A DNA stretch of 64,000 nt from an uncultured Candidatus Saccharibacteria bacterium (GCA_964478595.1 CAYZIN010000004.1:557-64556), one strand, 5' to 3'. Counted from the first letter of the stretch, positions 10,574 through 48,193 are shown. Program-made: numbers and translations. Notes: generated by a model from the sequence alone, not told the origin.

Positions 10574-12648
<2,075 letters not shown>

Positions 12649-26137: not shown

Positions 26138-27087
26138 TCCTCTTCCTCCGCGCCCACTGCGGCGGGCTGTTTAAGGCTCTTTGGTTCGTTTCCGCCAGTT
26201 AGATGGTTGGCTGACTCGATCTTGGCGCCAAGGCGGTTAAAACTCGACGAGGCGTTATCCATTTGGGCCTTAGCGTTAGATAAATGCTTTTGGACTAAAT
26301 TAAATTCGTCGGCAAAACGCCGTGTGTCACCCTGAATATCCTTCAAGAAATTCATCACTTCCTTGGCCCGTTCCTCAATCATATCGCCTTCAAGCGACAA
26401 CAAGATGATACCGAGGTAGTAGGTAAAGGTATGCGGCGAGACCAGAAAGACTCGAAGCGAATTTGCATAAGAGTCTAGGTCGGTGTTGGTCATGATTTCG
26501 TAGTAGACCGCTTCTCCCGGAACATACATGAGGGCAAAATCGACCGTACCTTCTCCGGGTAAAATATATTTTTTAGCAATGTCGGTGATGTGTTTTTTTA
26601 CATCCGAAATGAATAGTTTGTGAGCGCTCGCCTTCTCGGCCTCGTCTTTGGCTTGAACGTATTTTAGATAATTTTCAACCGGAAACTTAGAGTCGATAGG
26701 AATTAGACCGTTCTTGGTCTTGATGACGGCGTCGACTTTGGCGTGGGTTTTAAACTCGTACTGCAAACGATAATTCCCCTTGGGAATATTTTGCTTAATC
26801 AGATCACCCATCAGCCGTTCGCCAACATTGCCGCGCAGTTTAGGAGACTTCAAGACGTCTTGAATATCCTTCAGGCCTCGGCCAAGCTCCTGCATTTTGC
26901 CGAGCTCGTTTTGGAGGCTACCAAACACTTCAGCTGCTCGATCAAGCCGCTGGTTCATGTTGGTTAAGTCCTGCTTGAGTAGACCCATCCCAGAGTCATT
27001 TTTGAGCTCCGAGATTTTGGTAAACAGCAGCAAGAAACCGCCAACGACGGCCGCTAAAACTACGACTCCTACCAGTAACGCTTCCAT
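26134..27087 (-). CDS. rmuC: DNA recombination protein RmuC
   Basis: N-terminal TM, coiled-coil, and conserved RmuC C-terminal domain. ATGA overlap with trpS. Confidence 0.8.
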   Translation of the reverse strand: MEALLVGVVVLAAVVGGFLLLFTKISELKNDSGMGLLKQDLTNMNQRLDRAAEVFGSLQNELGKMQELGRGLKDIQDVLKSPKLRGNVGERLMGDLIKQNIPKGNYRLQYEFKTHAKVDAVIKTKNGLIPIDSKFPVENYLKYVQAKDEAEKASAHKLFISDVKKHITDIAKKYILPGEGTVDFALMYVPGEAVYYEIMTNTDLDSYANSLRVFLVSPHTFTYYLGIILLSLEGDMIEERAKEVMNFLKDIQGDTRRFADEFNLVQKHLSNAKAQMDNASSSFNRLGAKIESANHLTGGNEPKSLKQPAAVGAEEEE

Positions 27088-39055: not shown

Positions 39056-39886
39056 ATGAGGCGACTTTTACTTCGCTACGCCATTCCGGCAGTAGCAGCC
39101 TTAGGATTAAGCGGCACGATGCTGGCCGCGAGTACAATAACAATAACGAACACTGGATCGGGGTCTAACAACAGCGCCAGTGTCAGCAATAACAGCACAC
39201 TGACCCTAGTTAATACGCCCAACGGGGTTGTGATTAACACGAATAACCAAGGCGCTACCTCGGGCACAGCCAACGTCAGCGGTAACACCAACGGCGGGAG
39301 TGCAGTTTCGGGAGGTGCGAACAATAACAATAATGGCTCAACGGTCGTAACCTTTGGTAGTGGCTTTACGATTGCCGGCGGTGGCGGCGGATCAAACAGT
39401 GCCACTATCTCAACCACCGGGCCGGGTTCGAATAACCAAATTACTATCAGCGGTAACAGCACGGCCACGATCATTAATGCGCCAAATGTTAACGTCACCA
39501 ACTCCAATAGCCAAAACGCTTCTTCTGGTTCGGCTAACGTTAGTAACAACACCAACGGTGGAAGCGCAGTTAGTGGATCGGCCGGGAATACTAACTCAAG
39601 TAGCACTACTGTTAGTGCCAGTGCGCCAACGATCACTTTGCCTGGCGGTGGCGGATCAAATAGCGCGACTATCGCAACCACCGGGCCGGGTTCGAATAAC
39701 CAGGTTTCGATTAGCGCTAACCAGAACCTGACCGTGACTAACGTCCCGACAGCAAACGTTACCAATACCAACACTCAAACCGCCAATTCCGGCACAGCCA
39801 ATGTTTCCGGTAATACCAACGCTGGCAGCGCCGTCTCTGGAAGCGCCAATAACTCAAACAGCACAAGCACCAGTATCTCAATCTAA
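39056..39886 (+). CDS. Secreted Asn/Thr/Ser/Gly-rich repeat-family protein (276 aa). Paralog of the 2.8-7.8 kb cluster, with internal ~270-nt-spaced intragenic repeats.
   Basis: Signal peptide MRRLLLRYAIPAVAALGLSGTMLAA. GGAGGG RBS. Repeated module GGGGSNSATI(S/A)TTGPGSNNQ... and SG.ANVS.NTNGGSAVSGSA. The antisense ORF 39076..39774 is rejected. Confidence 0.7.
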   Translation: MRRLLLRYAIPAVAALGLSGTMLAASTITITNTGSGSNNSASVSNNSTLTLVNTPNGVVINTNNQGATSGTANVSGNTNGGSAVSGGANNNNNGSTVVTFGSGFTIAGGGGGSNSATISTTGPGSNNQITISGNSTATIINAPNVNVTNSNSQNASSGSANVSNNTNGGSAVSGSAGNTNSSSTTVSASAPTITLPGGGGSNSATIATTGPGSNNQVSISANQNLTVTNVPTANVTNTNTQTANSGTANVSGNTNAGSAVSGSANNSNSTSTSISI

Positions 39887-39905: not shown

Positions 39906-39938
39906 TTAGGGCCGCCCCGCTTGGGGCGACCCTGGTTG
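39906..39938. repeat. Partial copy (hairpin only) of the cassette junction module: agggccgccccgcttggggcgaccct
   Basis: The same GC hairpin as 40669..40694 and 41269..41294. Lies between the convergent ends of 39056..39886 and 39945..40649. Confidence 0.7.
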
Positions 39939-39944
39939 GTTCGT

Positions 39945-40649
39945 CTATCGAACGCAGTTGGGCTCAAGTTCGTCGATCACTTTGCGAGCTTCGTTGATCT
40001 TGGTTAAATCTTCCCCGGCCGCTACGAGAAAATCATAGTGATCCTTGAGACATTCCTGAACGACCCAAATGACCGGCGGAGCCAGGGGCATTAACTCCTC
40101 TGCCAGCTCGTCGCAATCCTCATGCTCACGAGCCGTCTCGACTAGCTCATCGATCTCCTTGCCGAAGTCCTTCAACTCGAGCCCAAGCTTTGGGTCGATC
40201 CCGTTGAGTGCTTTGGCGAAATCGTTGATGTCGCTGAGCGTCTCGAGTTCGTCGAGGAAATCCGACCGATCAAGCAGCCTCTGACCATACTCTCCGAGAT
40301 CCGCTTCGTTGTCGTGCTGAGATATCTCGAAAAAAGCTTCCACGACAGGACTTAGGGCATCGCTAATCTCGATGATCCCAGTTAACTCGCGACCGAGCTC
40401 GGCGATTTGCTGATCGCTATGGATCGACATCCGCTTGGCCAACTCGGAGAGTCGAGCCTTGAGTTTCTCGGCCGGGCTGGCTTCGGGCTCGTCGTTGAAG
40501 ACGAACATTGAGCCGATAACAATCAGGCCCATGAGGTCCTGAGCGACCTTTTGCATAGTCGAATCCTTCGACTGCTGCAAAGCAGTCTGCAGTTTCACTA
40601 GACTTTGCAATTCCACAGGGAACTCCCATCTCTCGATTGGCGTGTTCAT
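39945..40649 (-). CDS. Hypothetical highly acidic, helical protein A (234 aa), first cassette of the array
   Basis: Its start ATG and first 7 codons (MNTPIER) lie inside the repeated junction module. Distant similarity to 41311..41958 (shared DFAK(A/V)L and acidic helices). Confidence 0.6.
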   Translation of the reverse strand: MNTPIERWEFPVELQSLVKLQTALQQSKDSTMQKVAQDLMGLIVIGSMFVFNDEPEASPAEKLKARLSELAKRMSIHSDQQIAELGRELTGIIEISDALSPVVEAFFEISQHDNEADLGEYGQRLLDRSDFLDELETLSDINDFAKALNGIDPKLGLELKDFGKEIDELVETAREHEDCDELAEELMPLAPPVIWVVQECLKDHYDFLVAAGEDLTKINEARKVIDELEPNCVR

Positions 40650-40704
40650 TATAGCTCATAAATACTTAAGGGCCGCCCCGCTTGGGGCGACCCTACTTGG
40701 CGTA
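40622..40704 (-). repeat. Cassette junction module copy 1 (~83 nt): GC hairpin, then TTAAGTATTTATGAGCTATA, then ATGAACACGCCAATCGAGAGATGG
   Basis: Near-identical to 41222..41304 (one mismatch; 600-nt period). Includes the start codon of the downstream cassette. Confidence 0.85.
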
Positions 40705-40992
40705 TTTACGACTTTGTGAGTGCTTCCACCTGAGATATTGCCCGAAAGCCGAGTCGACCGGCTCAGGCGGCGGAGGAGGGTTCTCGATCTCGGTCAGAGT
40801 GCTAGCCAGCAGCAACCCGCCCTTACAGGGGCTACCGCCGTGATCAATCACTGTTTTCAGCAACTGCGATACCTCTTGGTCGCTCGCGGTAGCCAGGCCG
40901 TCTTCTACCTGCCAGGGATCGAAGAAGTCGCAACCGCTGGAGATGTGTTCACGAATCGCTTCGGCGATCCGATAGCGTTTCTCCAGATCCAC
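40693..40992 (-). CDS. Hypothetical small acidic protein (99 aa)
   Basis: ORF with plausible composition. Its C-terminal codons overlap the junction hairpin. Confidence 0.45.
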   Translation of the reverse strand: MDLEKRYRIAEAIREHISSGCDFFDPWQVEDGLATASDQEVSQLLKTVIDHGGSPCKGGLLLASTLTEIENPPPPPEPVDSAFGQYLRWKHSQSRKYAK

Positions 40993-41021
40993 GATGCCTC
41001 CTATATGATCCGAGATGAGCG

Positions 41022-41216
41022 CTATTGCTTGATCAATTCGGTCACCCGCCGCAAGACTTCACTGACGGTGATGCCGTGCTTTGCGGCTACTTGCCTCAAA
41101 GCAATCGCGACGTCGTGATCGACCTCAACGGCAGAAAAACCGGGAGTCACGATCACCACACTGCAGTCAGGGCCTGGCCCCAGGGACACGTTGCGATATC
41201 CAATTACGGTATTCAC
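41022..41216 (-). CDS. Hypothetical small protein (64 aa, GTG start) with an RHH/antitoxin-like C-terminus (ITVSEVLRRVTELIKQ)
   Basis: Begins 8 nt after the stop of the 7-codon uORF MNTPIER* created inside junction copy 2. Confidence 0.4.
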   Translation of the reverse strand: MNTVIGYRNVSLGPGPDCSVVIVTPGFSAVEVDHDVAIALRQVAAKHGITVSEVLRRVTELIKQ

Positions 41217-41221
41217 GATGA

Positions 41222-41304
41222 GCTCCTATCTCTCGATTGGCGTGTTCATTATAGCTCATAAATACTTAAGGGCCGCCCCGCTTGGGGCGACCCTACTTGG
41301 CGTA
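41222..41304 (-). repeat. Cassette junction module copy 2. Its embedded ORF start reads ATGAACACGCCAATCGAGAGATAG: a TGG to TAG change leaves a 7-codon uORF.
   Basis: 83 nt, one mismatch versus copy 1. Confidence 0.85.
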
Positions 41305-41310
41305 GAAGAA

Positions 41311-41958
41311 CTAAAGAGGCTCTTCTTCTTGGAAGTCAGGGGGCTGGCTGTCTATGAGCTCTTGCAGAGACTGGTGGTTGGGATCTTCCCGGTAATCCGG
41401 TTCTTGTGGGGGCTCGCCTGGGGGTGGAATGAGATCGGCAAGATCTGCGCCTTCGAACACGCCCATGTTGGCTCCTCGGAGCACGGCGGCCGGCTTGTCA
41501 TTGCCGGCAGCAACTTCCCTGAGTTTCGCGGTCAGGTCAATCTCCTCGAAGGTTGATTGTGCGAGACGGCCTGTTTCCAGTAGCGACGCTTCAGACATTG
41601 CGAGAATGAACTCAGCCGCGTCGTTAACTAGCATTGACGCTCGAGCTGATTCCGAAACTGCAGCTAAAGCCCGAGCCGCATTGACGCAGAATTCCAAACC
41701 CTCCCGGGCCAGCAGAAACTCGTCGTCCCACTCCGGGAACTGGATTCTTTCCCAGAGTTTATTCCCGAGCTCTTGGAACTCGGGATCGACCGTGTCGTTG
41801 ATAAGTACCTTGGCGAAATCTTCGACCGTGTCGGCATCGTCAAGTGCCGCGAGCAGTCCCTTGAGATCAAGCAGACGAGTTATCTCTGCGCCGATCTCGG
41901 CAAGATCGTTGTCGGTCGACTTGCAAAGAGTTTCAGCCAATACTTCAACATTAGCCAC
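41311..41958 (-). CDS. Hypothetical highly acidic, helical protein B (215 aa, GTG start)
   Basis: Its 5' UTR (ccgCCAATCGAGAGAacGGAGTTCCtT-GTG) is homologous to codons 3-10 of gene A. Acidic C-terminus. Confidence 0.55.
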   Translation of the reverse strand: MANVEVLAETLCKSTDNDLAEIGAEITRLLDLKGLLAALDDADTVEDFAKVLINDTVDPEFQELGNKLWERIQFPEWDDEFLLAREGLEFCVNAARALAAVSESARASMLVNDAAEFILAMSEASLLETGRLAQSTFEEIDLTAKLREVAAGNDKPAAVLRGANMGVFEGADLADLIPPPGEPPQEPDYREDPNHQSLQELIDSQPPDFQEEEPL

Positions 41959-42000
41959 AAGGAACTCCGTTCTCTCGATTGGCGGAGTTATTGTACCAGA

Positions 42001-43785
42001 TTAGGCGGCGAGTTCGTATTGTTTGAGCAAGGCCTTGCGTTGGCGCAGCGGTGCGGTTTGAAGCGCCAGCAATTCGGCGTAGATGCCACCTTCGAGGTCC
42101 GCCAGCTCCTCCGGCGAACCCAACTCGGCTACTCGGCCGCCCCGCAGCCCAACGATCATGTCGACGTTTTGAATGGTGGAGAGTCGGTGGGCAATGATCA
42201 TGGTCGTACGGCCCTTCATCAGCCTCTCTAACGCGTCTTGGACCTCGCGCTCGGCCTTGGAGTCAAGCGAGCTGGTTGCTTCGTCCAGGATGAGGATAGG
42301 CGGGTTTTTGAGTATGGCTCGGGCAATCGCAATGCGCTGTTTTTGCCCGCCGGAAAGTTTGACTCCCCGCTCACCAATTTCGGTGTCATAACCTTGGGGC
42401 AGTTTCTTAATAAAGTCATGCGCGTTAGCGGCTTTAGCAGCTTTAACCAAATCCGATTGCTTAACCGTTTTCTGGCCGTAGCCAATATTTTCTCGGACAC
42501 TGCCGGAGAATAATGCCGGATCCTGAAACACGACTCCCACCGATGACCGCAGCGAACTCTGAGTAACCTTGGCAATGTCTTGCCCATCAATCAGAATCTG
42601 TCCGGAGCTGGGTTCATAGAATCGCAGCAGTAAATTCGAAACCGTCGTTTTACCTTCGCCGCTTTCACCGACCAGCGCTACTTTCATCCCCGGCTGAACC
42701 TTAAACGACACATCTTTGAGCACTTTTTTACCACCCCCATAAGCAAAGTCGATGTCCTTATAAATAACACCGGCGTCTTTGACTTTAAGCGCCCGGGCAC
42801 CCGGTTGATCCTTAATGGCAGCTTCTTGCTCCATAACTTTAAAGTAATCTCGGCTGCCGGCTTTGGCTCGCTGGACTTGATCGATAATAAAACTCGAGGC
42901 AAACAGCGGGAACTGGGCTTGAGCTACCAGCTGCAACATTAAGGTCATCGTACCCAGGCTGATTTGCTGTTTGTAGGCCTGGTAAACAATAAAGCCGTAA
43001 ATTCCGAAAAAGACCACGCTTAGCCCAACCCGGCGAATCACATCGTAGCGGTGCCACTCGGCCGACTGAATTTTAGTTTGCCTCTCGATCGATTTTCGCT
43101 TACCGGCAAAAATTCTCGACTCCACCAGTTCCTGAACAAAGGATTTGACTACCCGAACTTGGCCGACCGCTTCAACGAAACGGCCTTGGGCAAAGTCGGT
43201 GTCCCGGTTAATGCCCTCTTGTTTTTTCTGCCAGGCTCGAGAGGAGAGAGTTGTCAGCCACATATACAGCGGAAACAGCGCGGCTAGCAGAATCGCCACA
43301 GGCGGAGAGTAGTAGGCCAAAATCCCGATTGTAATCCCAGCGGAAAGGAAAAAAGTCAGAAAGTTGTTGGTAAAAGCCTGGATCAGTTCACTAACGGTCA
43401 CGATGCTGCGATCGAGCCGAGAAGTAATCCGGCCGGTAATTTCATTGTCGAAGTACTCCATCGGCAAAGACAGAATGTGGTCGTAGTAGCGCTGAGACAG
43501 CAGAGTTTTGAGTTTGGCACCTAGCTGATCGCCTAAGTAGCCGGCGAAGTTATCGAAGAAAGTTTCAATCAGTGCCACCACCAAAATCATCACAACCCAG
43601 AAAATGAAGAAGCTGGCCGCAACCGGGTGACCTTTATTGATTTTGACCAAACCGTCGACGATGAACTTGAGGAAAAACGGCGTGGCTTGGCGGAGTAAGG
43701 AAATTAAAATTACAAAAAAGCCGGCCGCTAGGTAGTAACGCTTTAGCGACCAAGAATATTTAACGATTTTTAGCAGATCTCTCAC
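42001..43785 (-). CDS. ABC transporter, fused permease/ATPase (MsbA/exporter type)
   Basis: Six-TM N-terminal domain. Walker A GESGEGKTT. ABC signature LSGGQKQR. Walker B ILILDEATS. Confidence 0.9.
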   Translation of the reverse strand: MRDLLKIVKYSWSLKRYYLAAGFFVILISLLRQATPFFLKFIVDGLVKINKGHPVAASFFIFWVVMILVVALIETFFDNFAGYLGDQLGAKLKTLLSQRYYDHILSLPMEYFDNEITGRITSRLDRSIVTVSELIQAFTNNFLTFFLSAGITIGILAYYSPPVAILLAALFPLYMWLTTLSSRAWQKKQEGINRDTDFAQGRFVEAVGQVRVVKSFVQELVESRIFAGKRKSIERQTKIQSAEWHRYDVIRRVGLSVVFFGIYGFIVYQAYKQQISLGTMTLMLQLVAQAQFPLFASSFIIDQVQRAKAGSRDYFKVMEQEAAIKDQPGARALKVKDAGVIYKDIDFAYGGGKKVLKDVSFKVQPGMKVALVGESGEGKTTVSNLLLRFYEPSSGQILIDGQDIAKVTQSSLRSSVGVVFQDPALFSGSVRENIGYGQKTVKQSDLVKAAKAANAHDFIKKLPQGYDTEIGERGVKLSGGQKQRIAIARAILKNPPILILDEATSSLDSKAEREVQDALERLMKGRTTMIIAHRLSTIQNVDMIVGLRGGRVAELGSPEELADLEGGIYAELLALQTAPLRQRKALLKQYELAA

Positions 43786-43879: not shown

Positions 43880-44293
43880 TTAGGCAGGGATCTTGACGTG
43901 TTCGTGGACCTCTTGGCGGATCTTCTTGATCCGCTCGGCGGCGCTCCTGGTCAATGCGTCGAACCCATCGAGTTCGAGGTAGACCGGGGCCGAAACATCG
44001 CCGGTGATGCCCATCAGGGCGTTGTACAGCTGCGCTGGAACCTCGACCATGATCTCGCCGTTGACCTCGACCGGTGCCAAGTGCGAAGCACCTGCCCAGT
44101 CGCCTACTCGGTCGCGAGCCGCCATGAACACCTCGCATTGAGGCAACGAGCAACTCGCTTCGTCGTCCCTCCAATGCTGTCCAAAGCCGAAGTGATCGGG
44201 ACCGTGACCAGCCATGCGCTGGCAGTACGGTGATGAGTACAACTGCGGAAACCGAACACGGTCGCAGCTATCAACTGCACCTTCATTACCCAT
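43880..44293 (-). CDS. Hypothetical protein (137 aa), GC-rich (about 60%)
   Basis: AGGAGG lies 5 nt upstream of the ATG at 44293. Unrecognised family. Confidence 0.5.
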   Translation of the reverse strand: MGNEGAVDSCDRVRFPQLYSSPYCQRMAGHGPDHFGFGQHWRDDEASCSLPQCEVFMAARDRVGDWAGASHLAPVEVNGEIMVEVPAQLYNALMGITGDVSAPVYLELDGFDALTRSAAERIKKIRQEVHEHVKIPA

Positions 44294-44361
44294 CTCCACC
44301 TCCTAAGGTCCGAGCTGCTATCGACAGCGTTAGCGTTATTGTCTACCTTTAGCAAAATATT

Positions 44362-45432
44362 TCAAGGCAGCTCGGCGGCCGAACGAACCCTAGGCATTGT
44401 AAAAACTCCCGCTAGAGTTTGAGTCATGCCCTTCGCGGTTGTCACTGCGCTGGTAAAACCCGCCTGCTGCACCAAGCTAATCGTCAGTGCGTTAAAACTG
44501 CCGTAAGGGTAGGCGAAGCTAGAAACACTATGGCCAAGTTGGTATTCAATCGTAGCTTTCGAGTCGAAGATTTCGCTACGTTGAACTTCTGCCGGCTGCG
44601 CCGATAAAGCCAAGTGGTTTACAGTATGGGCCCCAATTTCAATCAAGCCGCTGCGATCAAGTGTCTTAATTTGATCCCAGTTCAAATACGAATCACCGCA
44701 AGCTTGCGCCTGGTTGTAGCGACGACCGGCCCCAATGCACCAGTTACTAGCTGCGCCGCCGGTGATGATGTAGTAGGTTGCTTTCATCTGGTATTTTTGC
44801 AACAACGAAAAAGCTTTGAGCTGGGAAGAAAACCCATCGTCGAACGTAATAATCACCGACTTGCCGGGCAGAACGCTGCGGCCAGACAAAGCATCAACCA
44901 GCTGGTCGGGCGTGATTGTGGTGTAGCCTTTGGCTCTAATTGCTAGCAGCTGCTGCTCAAAATCCGGGGGCGTGTAATGGTAAATCAGAATAGGGACGTT
45001 CACACCGGCGGCCACCGCCTGGGCTCTCGCCGCTTGTTCTGCCTTGGCAGCCGCGGCTTCGGCTTCGGCCCGAGCCTTATTTTTTTTGATCAACGAATTA
45101 TTCCAACCGATCAGATTTCCGGTCAGGCTGCTAATCTGGATTTTGGCAATAGCGTATTGCCCGGAATTGAAAATGTTCGCCCGAATCTCGTCCAGCTGGG
45201 AATTAATTACGCTCGCTTTAACAACCTCAATCCCGCTTTGTTTTTCTGTGGCTTCCAACCTTTCGATCCTCAGCTCAAGATCACTCAAGCCCTGCTCGGC
45301 ACTATCTTTGGCCTGACCGCTAAATTGGCTAACCGCCGCCCTAGCCGGCAACATAACCCCGGCGATGATAAAAAACGCCAAGGCCAGGCCCTTCCACCAA
45401 CTGCCGTAATCAATCCGCTTGCGCTTTGCCAT
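44362..45432 (-). CDS. Polysaccharide deacetylase (NodB-homology) with N-terminal TM and coiled-coil
   Basis: NodB motif IITFDDGFSSQ. N-terminal anchor and Ala/Gln-rich coiled coil. Confidence 0.8.
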   Translation of the reverse strand: MAKRKRIDYGSWWKGLALAFFIIAGVMLPARAAVSQFSGQAKDSAEQGLSDLELRIERLEATEKQSGIEVVKASVINSQLDEIRANIFNSGQYAIAKIQISSLTGNLIGWNNSLIKKNKARAEAEAAAAKAEQAARAQAVAAGVNVPILIYHYTPPDFEQQLLAIRAKGYTTITPDQLVDALSGRSVLPGKSVIITFDDGFSSQLKAFSLLQKYQMKATYYIITGGAASNWCIGAGRRYNQAQACGDSYLNWDQIKTLDRSGLIEIGAHTVNHLALSAQPAEVQRSEIFDSKATIEYQLGHSVSSFAYPYGSFNALTISLVQQAGFTSAVTTAKGMTQTLAGVFTMPRVRSAAELP

Positions 45433-45498
45433 TGCCTTGATTGAATCACATCCACCTAGAAGACGAAAGCCCCGAAGGACTTATCGTCTCGGGGCTCA

Positions 45499-45882
45499 TT
45501 AATGAACTAACTCGGCGAAACGCCGAAGCAAATTCTCGATCCGTTTCACCTGCTCGTCAAGGCGAACCTGCTCATGACCAACGCCGCCGCCATTTCTTAG
45601 GGTTGTGGCCGTCAGGGTCATCCTCGAGAGATCACTGCTCAGCTGAGACTCGGCTTCACCCTTGCTCTTCACTTCGACATCGATGAAGTGCTGCAACTCA
45701 AGCGCTCGCTCGAGCAGGTCGACGCTACCGTGCACGGCTGTGTAGTACTTACTTCCACTTTCCAATCGGCCGATCACACGCTTAAAGCAATCTCGATCAG
45801 CTTCAAGGTGCTTGCGTACGTTCTCGTCGAGCTGTTTCGGCATGGGGCCTTCGGCCGGCATCCATTCGGGTCGATCGCTCAC
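45499..45882 (-). CDS. Hypothetical protein (127 aa), second gene of a two-gene GC-rich operon
   Basis: AAAGGAGA RBS. A hairpin lies downstream at about 45455..45485. Confidence 0.5.
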   Translation of the reverse strand: MSDRPEWMPAEGPMPKQLDENVRKHLEADRDCFKRVIGRLESGSKYYTAVHGSVDLLERALELQHFIDVEVKSKGEAESQLSSDLSRMTLTATTLRNGGGVGHEQVRLDEQVKRIENLLRRFAELVH

Positions 45883-45891
45883 AATTCTCCT

Positions 45892-46086
45892 TTAGTCGAA
45901 GTTGCAGCAGTTGATCTTGCCCTTCACCACTCGGACGTGATCGAGCTTACCCTCGATCGTCATGGGGTAATCACCGTCCGGCACAATCCCCGGCCGGGGT
46001 AGTTCAGGGTGTCCCGCACGCGGCGGGAAGTCGTAGACGTCGACGAACTGCCGGTTAATCTCAGCGATGTAATCTGTCCACCACAT
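45892..46086 (-). CDS. Hypothetical small protein (64 aa)
   Basis: GAGAGGAG RBS immediately upstream of the ATG at 46086. Confidence 0.5.
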   Translation of the reverse strand: MWWTDYIAEINRQFVDVYDFPPRAGHPELPRPGIVPDGDYPMTIEGKLDHVRVVKGKINCCNFD

Positions 46087-46139
46087 CTTCGGCTCCTCTC
46101 AAGTTGCGCCGTCCAGTATGAAGATTTTACACCTAAATC

Positions 46140-46171
46140 AAAAGCACCCGAACCGTAGTTCTGGTGCTTTT
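46140..46171. terminator. Bidirectional hairpin AAAAGCACC...GGTGCTTTT
   Basis: 9-bp stem flanked by A-runs and T-runs on both sides. Confidence 0.45.
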
Positions 46172-46725
46172 GGTGGAGCTGCGGGGAATTGCACCCCGGT
46201 CCGCGAGATAACGCTTCAGGCTACTACAGGCTTAGTCCGTTTGATTTGTTTCTTTTCCAAACCGCCACACAAGCGAACAAAGATAGCGATTCGGAGCAGC
46301 CCAAATCTTAGCGACGAGTTAGGGCAAGCTCATCGAGCAACCAACTAAATGGCGCCGGATTAACCTAGTTGGCGTCGGTTAAAAGGCGGCTTTCGAACTT
46401 AAGCGAAAGCGGGTACTAAATCGTTGCGAGTTAGTAAGGTTGCCTATAACGCTGGCAAGCGGCCTGCAACACTGAAGTGTCAAAGTCCCACGTCGAAGCT
46501 GATCAGCCCCTCATCGTCGCAGCTACCTCCAGCTTACGCAAGATTTGCTTGCTGCAGCTTACCGGTGCTGCTCCTCTCGGCTCGTCAAACAGTCGTTTCA
46601 CTCCTTCGGATTGACTCGCCGGGAATCACATTGAGCTCGAGTATTCTAGCAAAATATTGTGGATTTTTCAACGCCGCCGGTGTAGAATACCGGCGCGTTA
46701 TTCGAACGAGTACCAAGGAGAGAAA

Positions 46726-47205
46726 ATGATTCCGACAACCGCCAGTGAGATCATCAACCGTGCCCATCTGATCATCAGCGCCGAGCCGCCGATCTATTCG
46801 AACTGGATACTGGAAGGGCCCAAGAACAATCCAGCTACACCGCTTGCCGTGGCCGCTGCCGACATCGACGATATCGGTTGCGCCGTGTACCAGTTGGCAG
46901 TTGTGAGTGACAAGATCGATGCTCTTGCGGTCCGCCGCAAGATACTTGGCTATGAAGTCCCGGTCGCGGCCACTCAAGCGCAAGTCGGGCTCGACAGACT
47001 CTGGGACCACAACCCCGAGTTCTATCCGGCCTTCGTCGCCGCCAGGGCCGCCAGGGCTAACATGCCGCTGATGCTGATCGCCTTCACGCTTGATGCAAAC
47101 GACGAGCTCATTGCGATCCTCTATCACCCCATCGACGTACCCACTTCTTTCGCGATCGATACGTTCAAGGACTTGATAGCCGGTACCATCGCTCTCCACA
47201 ACTAG
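46726..47205 (+). CDS. Hypothetical protein (159 aa)
   Basis: AAGGAGAG RBS 3 nt upstream of the ATG at 46726; the tool start at 46657 is an extension. The antisense ORF 46585..47199 is rejected as Arg/Asp-rich. Confidence 0.5.
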   Translation: MIPTTASEIINRAHLIISAEPPIYSNWILEGPKNNPATPLAVAAADIDDIGCAVYQLAVVSDKIDALAVRRKILGYEVPVAATQAQVGLDRLWDHNPEFYPAFVAARAARANMPLMLIAFTLDANDELIAILYHPIDVPTSFAIDTFKDLIAGTIALHN

Positions 47206-47252
47206 CCCTTCGATTTAGGCGAAATGCCTTCCAAATCGGAGGGCTTTTGCTT

Positions 47253-47777
47253 TTAGAGACTTAGAGTGCCGCCGATTTCGCCGAGCCTGTTGAGGCTAAT
47301 CCCGACTGAGCCGCTGGGCTGCAGTTTCGCTCCGTCAACGTAGGCGGTAGCAGTAATTCGATAGTCGTATTCGGTATGGCTAAGCAAACTGGCGGCTTTT
47401 TCGACACCTTGAAGCATACCGGCGATTTGGGCTGTCGCTTCTCCGCCAGGCATCATATCTTGCAGCGCTGCTCCAGCACTTTGATCGATATTTAACTGAA
47501 CCGTTTTCGTTTCGCCGGGCTGAATCTGAAATGACGTGTTGTCTTCACTTTTATAAATAGCTTGAGGCACGGTGTTTGTGGTGGCATCGGCTGAAGCGTT
47601 TCGCTGAATCCTAAGCAGTTCTACCTTGAGACCTTTGACGGTCTGGGGGCTTTTAGTAGTAACGGTCACCGTCACCGGAATGGCTTCGCCACCAATCTTA
47701 GCCGAGCTTGGCGCCGAAACAGCCACATGCACCCCACCAATATTTAAAGCCTTTTTGAAACCGCTAAATAAACCCAT
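47253..47777 (-). CDS. Spo0M-like (sporulation-control protein / arrestin-like) protein
   Basis: N-terminus MGLFSGFKKALNIGGVHVAV resembles the Spo0M family start. The tool ORF is extended upstream to 47918. Confidence 0.5.
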   Translation of the reverse strand: MGLFSGFKKALNIGGVHVAVSAPSSAKIGGEAIPVTVTVTTKSPQTVKGLKVELLRIQRNASADATTNTVPQAIYKSEDNTSFQIQPGETKTVQLNIDQSAGAALQDMMPGGEATAQIAGMLQGVEKAASLLSHTEYDYRITATAYVDGAKLQPSGSVGISLNRLGEIGGTLSL

Positions 47778-48193
47778 GCTGGCAATATAACATGCCAAGT
47801 TTCGCTCATGCTTGCATTGTTGTCTCGCCGCGGAGTACGGTGAAAATCTAAAGGAGCGCGCGTCCATAAGCCGCCGGTTTTGGCGGCTTTTTTGGTACAA
47901 AAAAATGCCTTTCGGCAAAAAACAAGAACCCTGGCAAACGTTTTTTGTTCGTCAATTTTTGGTTTTTGTATGTCCAGACCGACTACTCTAGCACCTAGAA
48001 AGTGATCTGGTTTTTGCCTTAGAGCGGTGCGGCGCGAGCCATTGCCGTGTTCCTTTTATTCGCTTCCCTCCAGGCTGGCTGCCCAGCAAAAAGCTTACGC
48101 TTATTCTACACGCACGTTCCCGTGTCGACAACGCGGTGTATAATTTCAGTGAGCGGCAAGGGCCGCTTGTTCTATCTCCAACCGGAGGTCCAA

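Follow-up and report, generated by a model that had tools for sequence, protein, structure and literature searches.

Repeated putative terminator and promoter sequences at the gene junctions of a small islet in a Candidatus Saccharibacteria genome

Comparison of the islet with described systems

Chromosomal integrons, the orphan immunity gene arrays of polymorphic toxins, phage morons and sequences under concerted evolution are the described systems with which we compared a 2.1 kb islet in the core chromosome of a Candidatus Saccharibacteria bacterium (TM7, Candidate Phyla Radiation (CPR)). The islet lies in a stretch of 64,000 nucleotides from a metagenome-assembled genome (MAG; GCA_964478595.1, CAYZIN010000004.1:557-64556), which was analyzed at its full length and is called the window here. 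Four minus-strand genes, gene B, the 64-aa gene, the 99-aa gene and gene A, are located between a conserved ABC exporter gene on one side and the convergent gene of a secreted repeat protein on the other side, and two of their junctions carry a near-identical module. We consider it probable (roughly 0.6) that the islet consists of three independent transcription units (gene B; the 64-aa and 99-aa genes; gene A) with junctions copied or homogenized by homologous recombination, and that it is lineage-specific and fast-changing.

In chromosomal integrons, unrelated small orphan genes stand in tandem on the same strand and are separated by a hairpin-forming repeat (attC, or VCR for the Vibrio cholerae repeats). 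The repeat is near-identical within a genome and differs between related species, and the gene content varies at a fixed site. The islet shares these features, and an earlier note on this DNA had drawn a comparison with integron-like cassettes. An integron-like site-specific system found no support. No integrase, transposase, recombinase or RAYT was detected by Pfam among 47 open reading frames (ORFs) of the window, including all neighbors of the locus, and Y1_Tnp (IS200/IS605-like) gave no match in the same set. The tested ORFs are housekeeping or envelope genes, for example those of PheS, Trp/Tyr-tRNA synthetase, ArgS, IF3, RmuC, bactofilin, glycosyltransferases and a histidine kinase. Neither strand of the module contains GTTRRRY or RYYYAAC, the motifs expected for attC R-boxes. 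Between the module ends, where terminal inverted repeats would be located, no complementary run exceeds 3 nt, and the module flanks CAAAGTCGTAAA/CCTGTGGAATTG and CTTTAGTTCTTC/ATCGTGAATACC have no target-site duplication in common. The hairpin of the islet is a perfect 26-nt palindrome, whereas attC sites are imperfect palindromes of 57-141 nt with R''/R' boxes and extrahelical bases. Unlike integrons, the islet lacks IntI or a tyrosine recombinase in the ORFs tested and has only three units. Each of them has its own predicted promoter and Shine-Dalgarno (SD) sequence, in contrast to integron cassettes, which are mostly promoterless and driven by the cassette promoter Pc. A literature search on Saccharibacteria gave no relevant result for either integrons or hypervariable islands.

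The orphan immunity arrays of polymorphic toxins (contact-dependent inhibition (CDI), Rhs, type VI and type VII secretion systems (T6SS/T7SS)) also contain small, fast-evolving, acidic orphans and repeated junctions. In contrast to these arrays, the islet has no toxin gene or domain and no displaced toxin C-terminal fragments, its junctions appear to be promoter and terminator sequence, and none of its proteins matches an immunity family in PADLOC or Pfam. By the features compared, both the integron and the immunity-array analogy seem to fail.

Self-contained promoter-gene-terminator units that stand between conserved neighbors and are absent from a close relative are typical of phage morons, and the islet units resemble them in this respect. 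Unlike morons, they are located in the core chromosome and not in a prophage, have no phage matches and share promoter/leader and terminator sequences with each other. Concerted evolution is usually described for rRNA and tRNA operons, tuf and surface-antigen families. Its pattern is found in the islet, where coding regions that are unrelated or share only about 26-31% identity have non-coding flanks of about 100% identity, and where the copies are homogeneous within the genome and divergent between species. What differs from the usual case is that a full terminator-promoter-leader spacer in a tiny CPR islet would be concerned. Local recombination within a gene islet that changes fast seems a better description of the locus than a new cassette system. 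It is a variant of well-known phenomena, namely variable islets, moron-like autonomous units and concerted evolution of regulatory DNA.

The junction module and the expression signals of the units

The module is a direct repeat of 85 nt, identified by a repeat finder between the 99-aa gene and gene A (copy 1, 40620-40704, minus strand) and between gene B and the 64-aa gene (copy 2, 41220-41304, minus strand). Both copies differ at two positions (98% identity) and are spaced exactly 600 nt from start to start, which bears out the repeat reported in the earlier note (83 nt, one mismatch, 600-nt period). Read on the minus strand, the mismatches are located at module positions 78 and 83, so that the first 77 nt are 100% identical and both differences fall in the last 8 nt, beside the SD sequence. 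The repeated module represents the complete spacer from the stop codon to the SD sequence. It includes the hairpin AGGGCCGCCCCGCTTGGGGCGACCCT, a 26-nt palindrome of which exactly three perfect copies exist (39908, 40669 and 41269). The third one, already noticed before as a hairpin-only copy, stands alone at 39908..39933 (minus strand) in the 58-nt spacer between the convergent gene A and the secreted-protein gene. Elsewhere in the 64 kb the hairpin was not found even with three mismatches (chance expectation 0). Three copies were also identified for the leader CGCCAATCGAGAGA, all on the minus strand and only at this locus (40629, 41229 and 41971). The copy at 41971 corresponds to the diverged 5' fragment that had been described in front of gene B. 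The 27-nt segment between hairpin and leader occurs in the 64 kb only in the two full modules.

All three hairpin copies in the 64 kb lie within 2.1 kb, and by this count in the window the module is specific to the locus and not a REP-like repeat spread over the genome. The locus is not a trivial tandem duplication of a single gene. The genes behind the junctions are different, as had been stated before, and unrelated apart from a weak paralogy of A and B (BLASTP E = 2e-4). In larger collections, a 24-mer of the hairpin gave 0 matches in 185,579 GTDB representative genomes and 0 in the viral contigs of IMG/VR. The promoter and leader pattern had 0 matches in viral contigs, and the whole locus did not match INPHARED phages or PLSDB plasmids in a distant blastn search. 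The leader pattern CGCCAATCGAGAGANNGGAG was found 22 times in metagenomes of the Joint Genome Institute (JGI). None of these matches has a TAnAAT box, the hairpin or related genes, and they therefore look like chance, as expected for 18 specified bases.

A comparison of the 70 nt upstream of all plausible genes of the window revealed that the three islet units share a perfect register of TAnAAT, 5 nt, CGCCAATCGAGAGA, 2 nt, GGAG, 6 nt and GTG, with a conserved leader of about 25 nt. The -10 hexamers are TATAAT, TATAAT and TACAAT, and TAnAAT is located 31 nt upstream of the GTG in 3/3 window units and at a near-identical distance in the sister genome described below. In copy 2 (minus strand) the hairpin is found at 41269-41294, TATAAT at 41248-41253, the leader at 41229-41242 and GGAG at 41223-41226. 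The corresponding elements of copy 1 (minus strand) are located at 40669-40694, 40648-40653, 40629-40642 and 40623-40626. Junction 0, the 42-nt spacer between the ABC exporter gene and gene B (41959..42000, minus strand), contains the promoter/leader part without a hairpin, with an extended -10 TGGTACAAT at 41990-41998, the leader at 41971-41984 and GGAG at 41965-41968. It seems to be an older, diverged copy. The candidate promoters thus comprise TATAAT twice and the extended -10 once, all in the same register, and TGGTACAAT is also present in the sister genome. TAnAAT near the start codon is the usual upstream signal among the window genes listed, for example TAGAAT 7 nt before the GTG of the ABC exporter gene and TAGAAT or TACAAT before the genes starting at 27087, 24209 and 63838.

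At the starts at 43785, 27087, 24209, 63838 and 38684, TAnAAT is only 7-19 nt upstream and no SD sequence is present, which suggests frequent leaderless or very-short-leader mRNAs in this Saccharibacteria genome. The islet genes differ from these genes by their leader of about 25 nt with GGAG.

According to the earlier note, the module also includes the start codon and the first seven codons (MNTPIER) of the following gene. These codons do not represent the beginning of a gene. In copy 2, a TAG comes directly after ATGAACACGCCAATCGAGAGA (MNTPIER*), and the start of the 64-aa gene, GTG 41216, lies 10 nt further on. The proposed ATG stands directly behind the -10 hexamer (TATAATG) and has no SD sequence before it. 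In copy 1, a single G/A difference (TGG for TAG) lets the same ATG read into gene A. The resulting 234-aa form (ATG 40649) was not taken. The NCBI product of gene A is a 223-aa protein from GTG 40616 (P0001, 100% identity and coverage), and GGAG is located 6 nt upstream of this GTG. The 11-codon N-terminal extension has a coding score of -0.007, compared to 0.332 for A, and in the sister genome the start of the A homologue (ATG GAG...) coincides with the GTG of A (GTG GAA...). Based on the stop in copy 2, the NCBI start, the score of the extension and the start of the homologue, the supposed first seven codons would be -10 box and 5' untranslated region, and the module encodes no protein.

A 7-codon mini-ORF is nevertheless present as MNTPIER* in the window (41225-41248, minus strand) and as MVSPIER* in the sister genome (12134-12157, plus strand). 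In both, the TAG of TAGGAG serves as its stop codon. The mini-ORF probably arises as a by-product of TAnAAT-G and the conserved leader. On any read-through transcript it would form an upstream ORF (uORF) overlapping the SD sequence. We rejected a uORF or leader peptide as the principal explanation, because the ATG overlaps the -10 box and is not preceded by an SD sequence, and because an ATG is missing from the third leader. The 7-mer ACGCCAA, which occurs twice in the module at a distance of 60 nt, was considered as a pair of operator half-sites and dropped, with a chance probability of about 0.2 in 85 nt by rough estimate.

The hairpin folds into an 11-bp stem (9 G-C pairs, one G-U) with a 4-nt loop, and the hairpin segments fold strongly compared to shuffled sequences (z about -3.3 to -4.9). 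The stem begins 2 nt after the stop codon of the 99-aa gene, 13 nt after that of gene A and 22 nt after that of gene B. The earlier statement that a U-tract is missing does not apply to copy 3, which is followed by AAAAGTTTTT with the U-tract AAAAGUUUUU and was flagged as terminator-like by the scan. Copies 1 and 2 are followed only by the U-rich UUAAGUAUUUAU. Similar GC hairpins with a weak or no U-tract are common between other genes of this genome. The hairpin had been suggested to be a processing, stability or recombination site. In view of the similar intergenic hairpins elsewhere in the genome, an ordinary terminator is preferred here. All three hairpins are best read as intrinsic-type terminators of uncertain efficiency. 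Copy 3 is probably a bidirectional terminator and, by its position, likely the ancestral hairpin copy. The earlier idea that each junction combines the transcript end of one unit with the start region of the following unit is supported. In Rfam, the locus had no match at gathering thresholds, and at E<=10 only rli32 was listed with 15.9 bits against a gathering threshold of 100.

Gene content of the islet and of the sister locus

For comparison, a second Candidatus Saccharibacteria MAG locus (CAZJNH010000003.1, in the following L001) was found by a search with the ABC exporter, which has 88.9% amino acid identity to the L001 copy and more distant copies in other Saccharimonadia. On both sides of the locus, L001 and the window are collinear, with 66-80% identity at the nucleotide level. 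The protein identity is 85.5% for the M29 peptidase, 67.7% for ArgS and 62.4% for the metallo-beta-lactamase (MBL)-fold protein. The ABC exporter gene and the convergent N/S/G-rich gene are only 0.87 kb apart in L001, and two genes lie between them, an unrelated 78-aa gene and a gene for a 142-aa homologue of A (39% identity, C-terminal 122 aa of A). Counterparts of gene B, the 64-aa gene and the 99-aa gene are not present in L001. Hence the gene content at this exact site turns over between the two species. No other protein of the syntenic block has diverged as far as A, with 39% identity compared to 62-89% for its neighbors.

The region upstream of the L001 A homologue reads TGGTACAATggtctCGCCAATCGAGAGATAGGAGttctATG. 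It contains the same extended -10 TGGTACAAT as in front of gene B of the window, followed by 5 nt and CGCCAATCGAGAGA, so that TGGTACAAT-5nt-CGCCAATCGAGAGATAGGAGTT is 100% conserved. The leader and SD region is identical to window copy 2 over 24 nt (100%), while the adjoining intergenic DNA of window and L001 is not alignable. L001 has a repeat of its own, a 48-nt GC-hairpin segment (12078-12125 and 12595-12642, 96% identical), which is located after the 78-aa gene and after the A homologue. The sequence is unlike the window hairpin, and the copy after the A homologue takes the position equivalent to copy 3. Hairpins that are homogeneous within a genome and divergent between genomes point to local copying or gene conversion after the species split. 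This pattern does not fit an ancient conserved element or a dispersed mobile repeat. Other Saccharibacteria loci with the ABC exporter (L004-L014 and L044, 47-61% identity) were rejected as comparators, as they have no synteny, no A or B homologues and no local hairpin repeats.

The ABC exporter gene (42001-43785, minus strand) encodes 594 aa with the Pfam domains ABC_membrane and ABC_tran. It is followed by gene B (215 aa, 41311..41958, minus strand, GTG start 41958, coding score 0.255) and by the 64-aa gene (41022..41216, minus strand), the first one of the two-gene unit. The second one, the orphan 99-aa gene (40693..40992, minus strand), begins 26 nt past the stop of the 64-aa gene and has its own GGAG 5 nt before the GTG. 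Because of this short gap and the separate GGAG, both genes probably form one operon. The last three codons and the stop of the 99-aa gene (YAK*) are located within module copy 1. Gene A (39945..40616, minus strand) ends the islet and is convergent to the secreted-protein gene (39056-39886, plus strand). Gene B lies in the reading frame of the ABC exporter gene, with the TAA stop and 14 sense codons between them (41959-42003) and no start codon. The TAG stop of gene B is followed 5 codons on by a second in-frame TAG inside the module, in the register of the stop of the 99-aa gene.

The islet (39945-42000) has a GC content of 0.53-0.57 and a GC content at third codon positions (GC3) of 0.58-0.67, with a GC content of about 0.51 for the window and a mean GC3 of 0.55 for its long genes. 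Two orphan ORFs at 43880-44299 and 45499-45882 share this slightly raised bias. The surroundings contain further genes of the core chromosome, namely those of SmpB, ArgS and transfer-messenger RNA (tmRNA). The tmRNA gene (46171-46510, minus strand) is on the strand of the ABC exporter gene in the window and on the opposite strand in L001 (7940-8282). In the 21.8 kb of L001, no counterpart was found for window region 43880-47918, which contains the genes of a polysaccharide deacetylase and of two orphans (139 and 127 aa) between the tmRNA gene and the ABC exporter gene, and also the ORFs 46585-47199 and 47253-47918. This segment beside ssrA, a classic island integration site, appears to be a second variable or inverted segment.

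The four minus-strand ORFs described before are present, and all score as coding in frame 0 under a codon model from the long genes of the window. Their frame-0 scores are 0.15-0.33, compared to a minimum of 0.135 and a mean of 0.26 for the training genes, and the other frames are negative in nearly all cases, with the antisense frame of the 64-aa ORF (0.131) as an exception. They are treated as real genes, as their codon usage seems host-like despite their orphan status. In a collection of 15 billion proteins all four window proteins are orphans, each a singleton cluster from NCBI. An indexed search of 5.8 billion clusters matched A, B and the 99-aa protein only to themselves. Exhaustive HMMER searches with A in 1.84 billion representatives returned only A itself, P0005 from L001 (142 aa) and a spurious match to ankyrin repeats. 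Exact-sequence contig look-ups gave no record for the window proteins, while P0005 led to the L001 contig and to a 1.3-kb Logan contig of the same organism.

The products of gene A (pI 4.3, net charge -28) and gene B (pI 4.05, net charge -32, with a Pro/Glu-rich C-terminus) are strongly acidic. A has an internal repeat motif of about 40 aa, and a weak motif of this length, of the type D..L.ELG..L...L (segment z up to 7), is repeated in A, B and the L001 protein. The weak paralogy of B to A extends over the N-terminal repeat motif. AlphaFold2 (AF2) predicted an all-helical structure for A, but at unusable confidence (two-sequence alignment, predicted local distance difference test (pLDDT) 45). 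Roles as immunity, effector, DNA-mimic or anti-restriction proteins had been suggested for the acidic products. They found no support here, as Pfam, NCBIfam, PADLOC and PHROGs gave nothing significant for the islet proteins and the model of A could not be used.

The description of the 64-aa protein as ribbon-helix-helix (RHH)-like is a lead: hints below threshold exist in Pfam and in fold comparisons, and none is significant. In Pfam, RelB has E=0.015 with 15.6 bits (cut-off 22.4) and FitA-like_RHH E=0.087 with 13.2 bits (cut-off 27). The AF2 monomer has a pLDDT of 65, with helices 34-47 and 51-63 at 74-87 and no confident strand. In a Foldseek search of this model against the PDB, CopG, Arc, VapB and AtaR were listed at E = 4-9 only and nothing had E<1, and a PDB sequence search found designed helical repeats only. 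The C-terminal 35 aa could possibly form an RHH-like strand-helix-helix. For the 99-aa protein, no toxin family was detected in Pfam, NCBIfam, PADLOC or PHROGs and no homologue in the 5.8 billion clusters.

The secreted N/S/G-rich protein beside gene A has a signal-peptide-like N-terminus, an internal DNA repeat of 264 nt and reiterated SGSANVSGNTNGGSAVSG motifs. It is kept in L001 (12654-13514), belongs to no Pfam or NCBIfam family and is possibly a beta-solenoid or amyloid-like surface protein.

Origin of the junctions and meaning for the organism

In the explanation we favor, each of the three units would consist of a TAnAAT promoter, a 5-nt spacer, the leader CGCCAATCGAGAGA, GGAG and a GTG start, and the same 11-bp GC hairpin would terminate the 3' end of each. 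A junction would be the place where the terminator of one unit meets the promoter and leader of the next. The 77-nt identical tract would originate from a recent homologous recombination. Either a resident junction was duplicated as the 64-aa/99-aa pair entered between B and A, or gene conversion took place between two older junctions. The recombined tract would end where the unrelated coding sequences begin. The leader (about +1 to +25) would be older and under selection. It is identical in the sister species and probably represents a common control element, either an operator or a translation-initiation region, through which the units are co-regulated. The restriction of the mismatches to the last 8 nt fits a recent 77-nt tract that abuts an older, constrained SD region.

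Several points weigh against this explanation. Behind hairpin copies 1 and 2, UUAAGUAUUUAU is U-rich and offers no clean U-tract. Promoter, terminator and transcription start are consensus-based assignments. No -35 box is recognizable at the TAnAAT sites, and a generic sigma-70 scan flagged none of them. Selection on the leader refers to one interspecies comparison of two genomes. Duplication on insertion and gene conversion are not distinguishable here. Further copies of the module may exist in the source genome outside the 64-kb window, and strain-level chimerism may be present in the MAG assembly. In addition, the predicted leader hairpins pair the SD sequence with sequence overlapping the -10 box and would form only on read-through transcripts. 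This hints at a role on the RNA level which the favored model leaves unexplained.

The explanation that comes closest to it, though we regard it as doubtful, takes the junctions as a landing pad without a recombinase. The shared promoter/leader and hairpin would serve as portable homology arms, and units would be swapped by RecA from circular or linear junction-gene-junction DNA, taken up by natural transformation or looped from the array of a relative. In function, such a system would resemble an integron array that has neither IntI nor attC. The repeat spans exactly the spacer from stop codon to SD sequence and flanks the 515-bp two-gene insert as direct repeats, which a Campbell-type or double-crossover insertion at the junction would leave behind. 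However, one ordinary insertion or gene conversion yields the same pattern, and tracts of 77-85 nt are short for RecA to exchange DNA efficiently. Natural competence and the integration of DNA by homologous recombination are described for Saccharibacteria (PMC10633639; PMC10187176), and the junctions could therefore in principle serve as homology arms for exchange between strains. The inserted genes are unrelated orphans, and the gene content differs between the syntenic sisters, each of which has its own locally duplicated hairpin. On the other hand, a single duplicated full junction in one genome, and two genomes in total, are available. Donor arrays, excised circles or presence/absence polymorphism were not observed, and the module was absent from every other collection searched. 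The cassette shuffling by junction recombination proposed earlier fits the gene turnover at this site relative to L001, while the exchange itself is only possible. It is less likely still that the islet represents a RecA-only, integrase-free capture of orphan genes in an expression-cassette frame and that A and B form a fast-evolving family for host or phage interaction.

Similarly unlikely is the assumption that the 64-aa/99-aa pair is a selfish module like a type II toxin-antitoxin (TA) system, with an RHH antitoxin or repressor and a small toxin, inserted between B and A. It would have brought or copied the junction, and the 64-aa protein would repress the shared promoter/leader. As in type II TA systems with an RHH antitoxin, a small putative strand-helix-helix protein comes first, a second small gene with its own SD sequence follows closely, and the presence is variable. 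The gene order and sizes fit, and the pair is absent from L001. The RelB and FitA-RHH hints and the RHH folds among the top Foldseek matches are weak evidence in the same direction, but all of it is sub-significant (Pfam below gathering thresholds, Foldseek E>1), and the 99-aa protein matches neither a toxin family nor any other protein. The three promoters share sequence at about +1 to +14, which is a candidate operator. This leader, however, lacks the inverted or direct repeat usually bound by RHH dimers, no operator repeats were identified, and L001 keeps the identical leader without a homologue of the 64-aa protein.

Somewhat less credible again is a cis-acting RNA element, in which hairpin and leader would act on a single polycistronic transcript from the promoter of the ABC exporter gene. 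The hairpins would be barriers to 3'-5' exonucleases or processing sites, the leader hairpins would occlude the SD sequence, and TAnAAT would be incidental. All genes follow the ABC gene in its downstream direction and share one strand, and the missing clean U-tract of hairpin copies 1 and 2 would agree with such a role. In copies 2 and 3 the SD sequence is predicted to pair with a 7-nt complement at or just after the -10 box (AUGAGCU/AGCUCAU and AACUCCG/CGGAGUU). These pairings are not position-conserved across the four leaders, and the folding is unexceptional for the leader of junction 0, which has no GC hairpin (z = -1.5), and for the L001 junction (z = -1.15). The -10 hexamer is kept in exact register, including TGGTACAAT in both species, and Rfam offers no supporting family beyond the far sub-threshold rli32.

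Short GC-rich intergenic palindromes at the 3' ends of genes are also known from REP/BIME (repetitive extragenic palindromes/bacterial interspersed mosaic elements) and from Correia or MITE (miniature inverted-repeat transposable element) sequences. REP sequences have a GTAG head, and Correia-type elements can add promoters and supply RNA-processing sites. A small mobile or REP-like repeat with an outward promoter that landed repeatedly at this site is very improbable, even though GTAG stands ahead of the perfect palindrome in 2/3 copies. This GTAG overlaps the stop codon at the end of the 99-aa gene, and CCAG takes its place in the third copy. Unlike the dispersed elements, all copies are found in 2.1 kb and none in the other 62 kb. 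The lack of terminal inverted repeats, target-site duplications and RAYT, IS200-like or other transposases described above and the absence of the hairpin from representative genomes and viral contigs speak against it as well. Finally, the sequence is a MAG contig (64,591 nt, NCBI) and near-identical short repeats are classic mis-join sites, but an assembly artefact, with the 600-bp unit and the duplicated junction coming from collapsed or chimeric strain variants, can hardly account for two copies that differ at two positions, have unique flanks on both sides, adjoin intact ORFs and, at 85 nt, are below typical read lengths and can be spanned by reads, or for the same design in an independently assembled sister MAG with a hairpin duplication found again in a separate Logan assembly.

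Swapping of genes at the junctions, if shown, would matter more than the favored explanation, because it would be an integrase-free way of capturing genes. The defined Saccharibacteria set of TAnAAT-N5-CGCCAATCGAGAGA-N2-GGAG and an 11-bp GC hairpin could serve for genetic tools. The strongly acidic proteins A and B belong to a family of predicted helical-repeat proteins that is very small, restricted to this lineage and without known relatives. If the three-unit explanation is true, the genes of this variable islet are each framed by a copy of a resident promoter/leader and terminator, and the islet would be a tidy, ordinary example of how new orphan genes gain expression in a reduced CPR genome.

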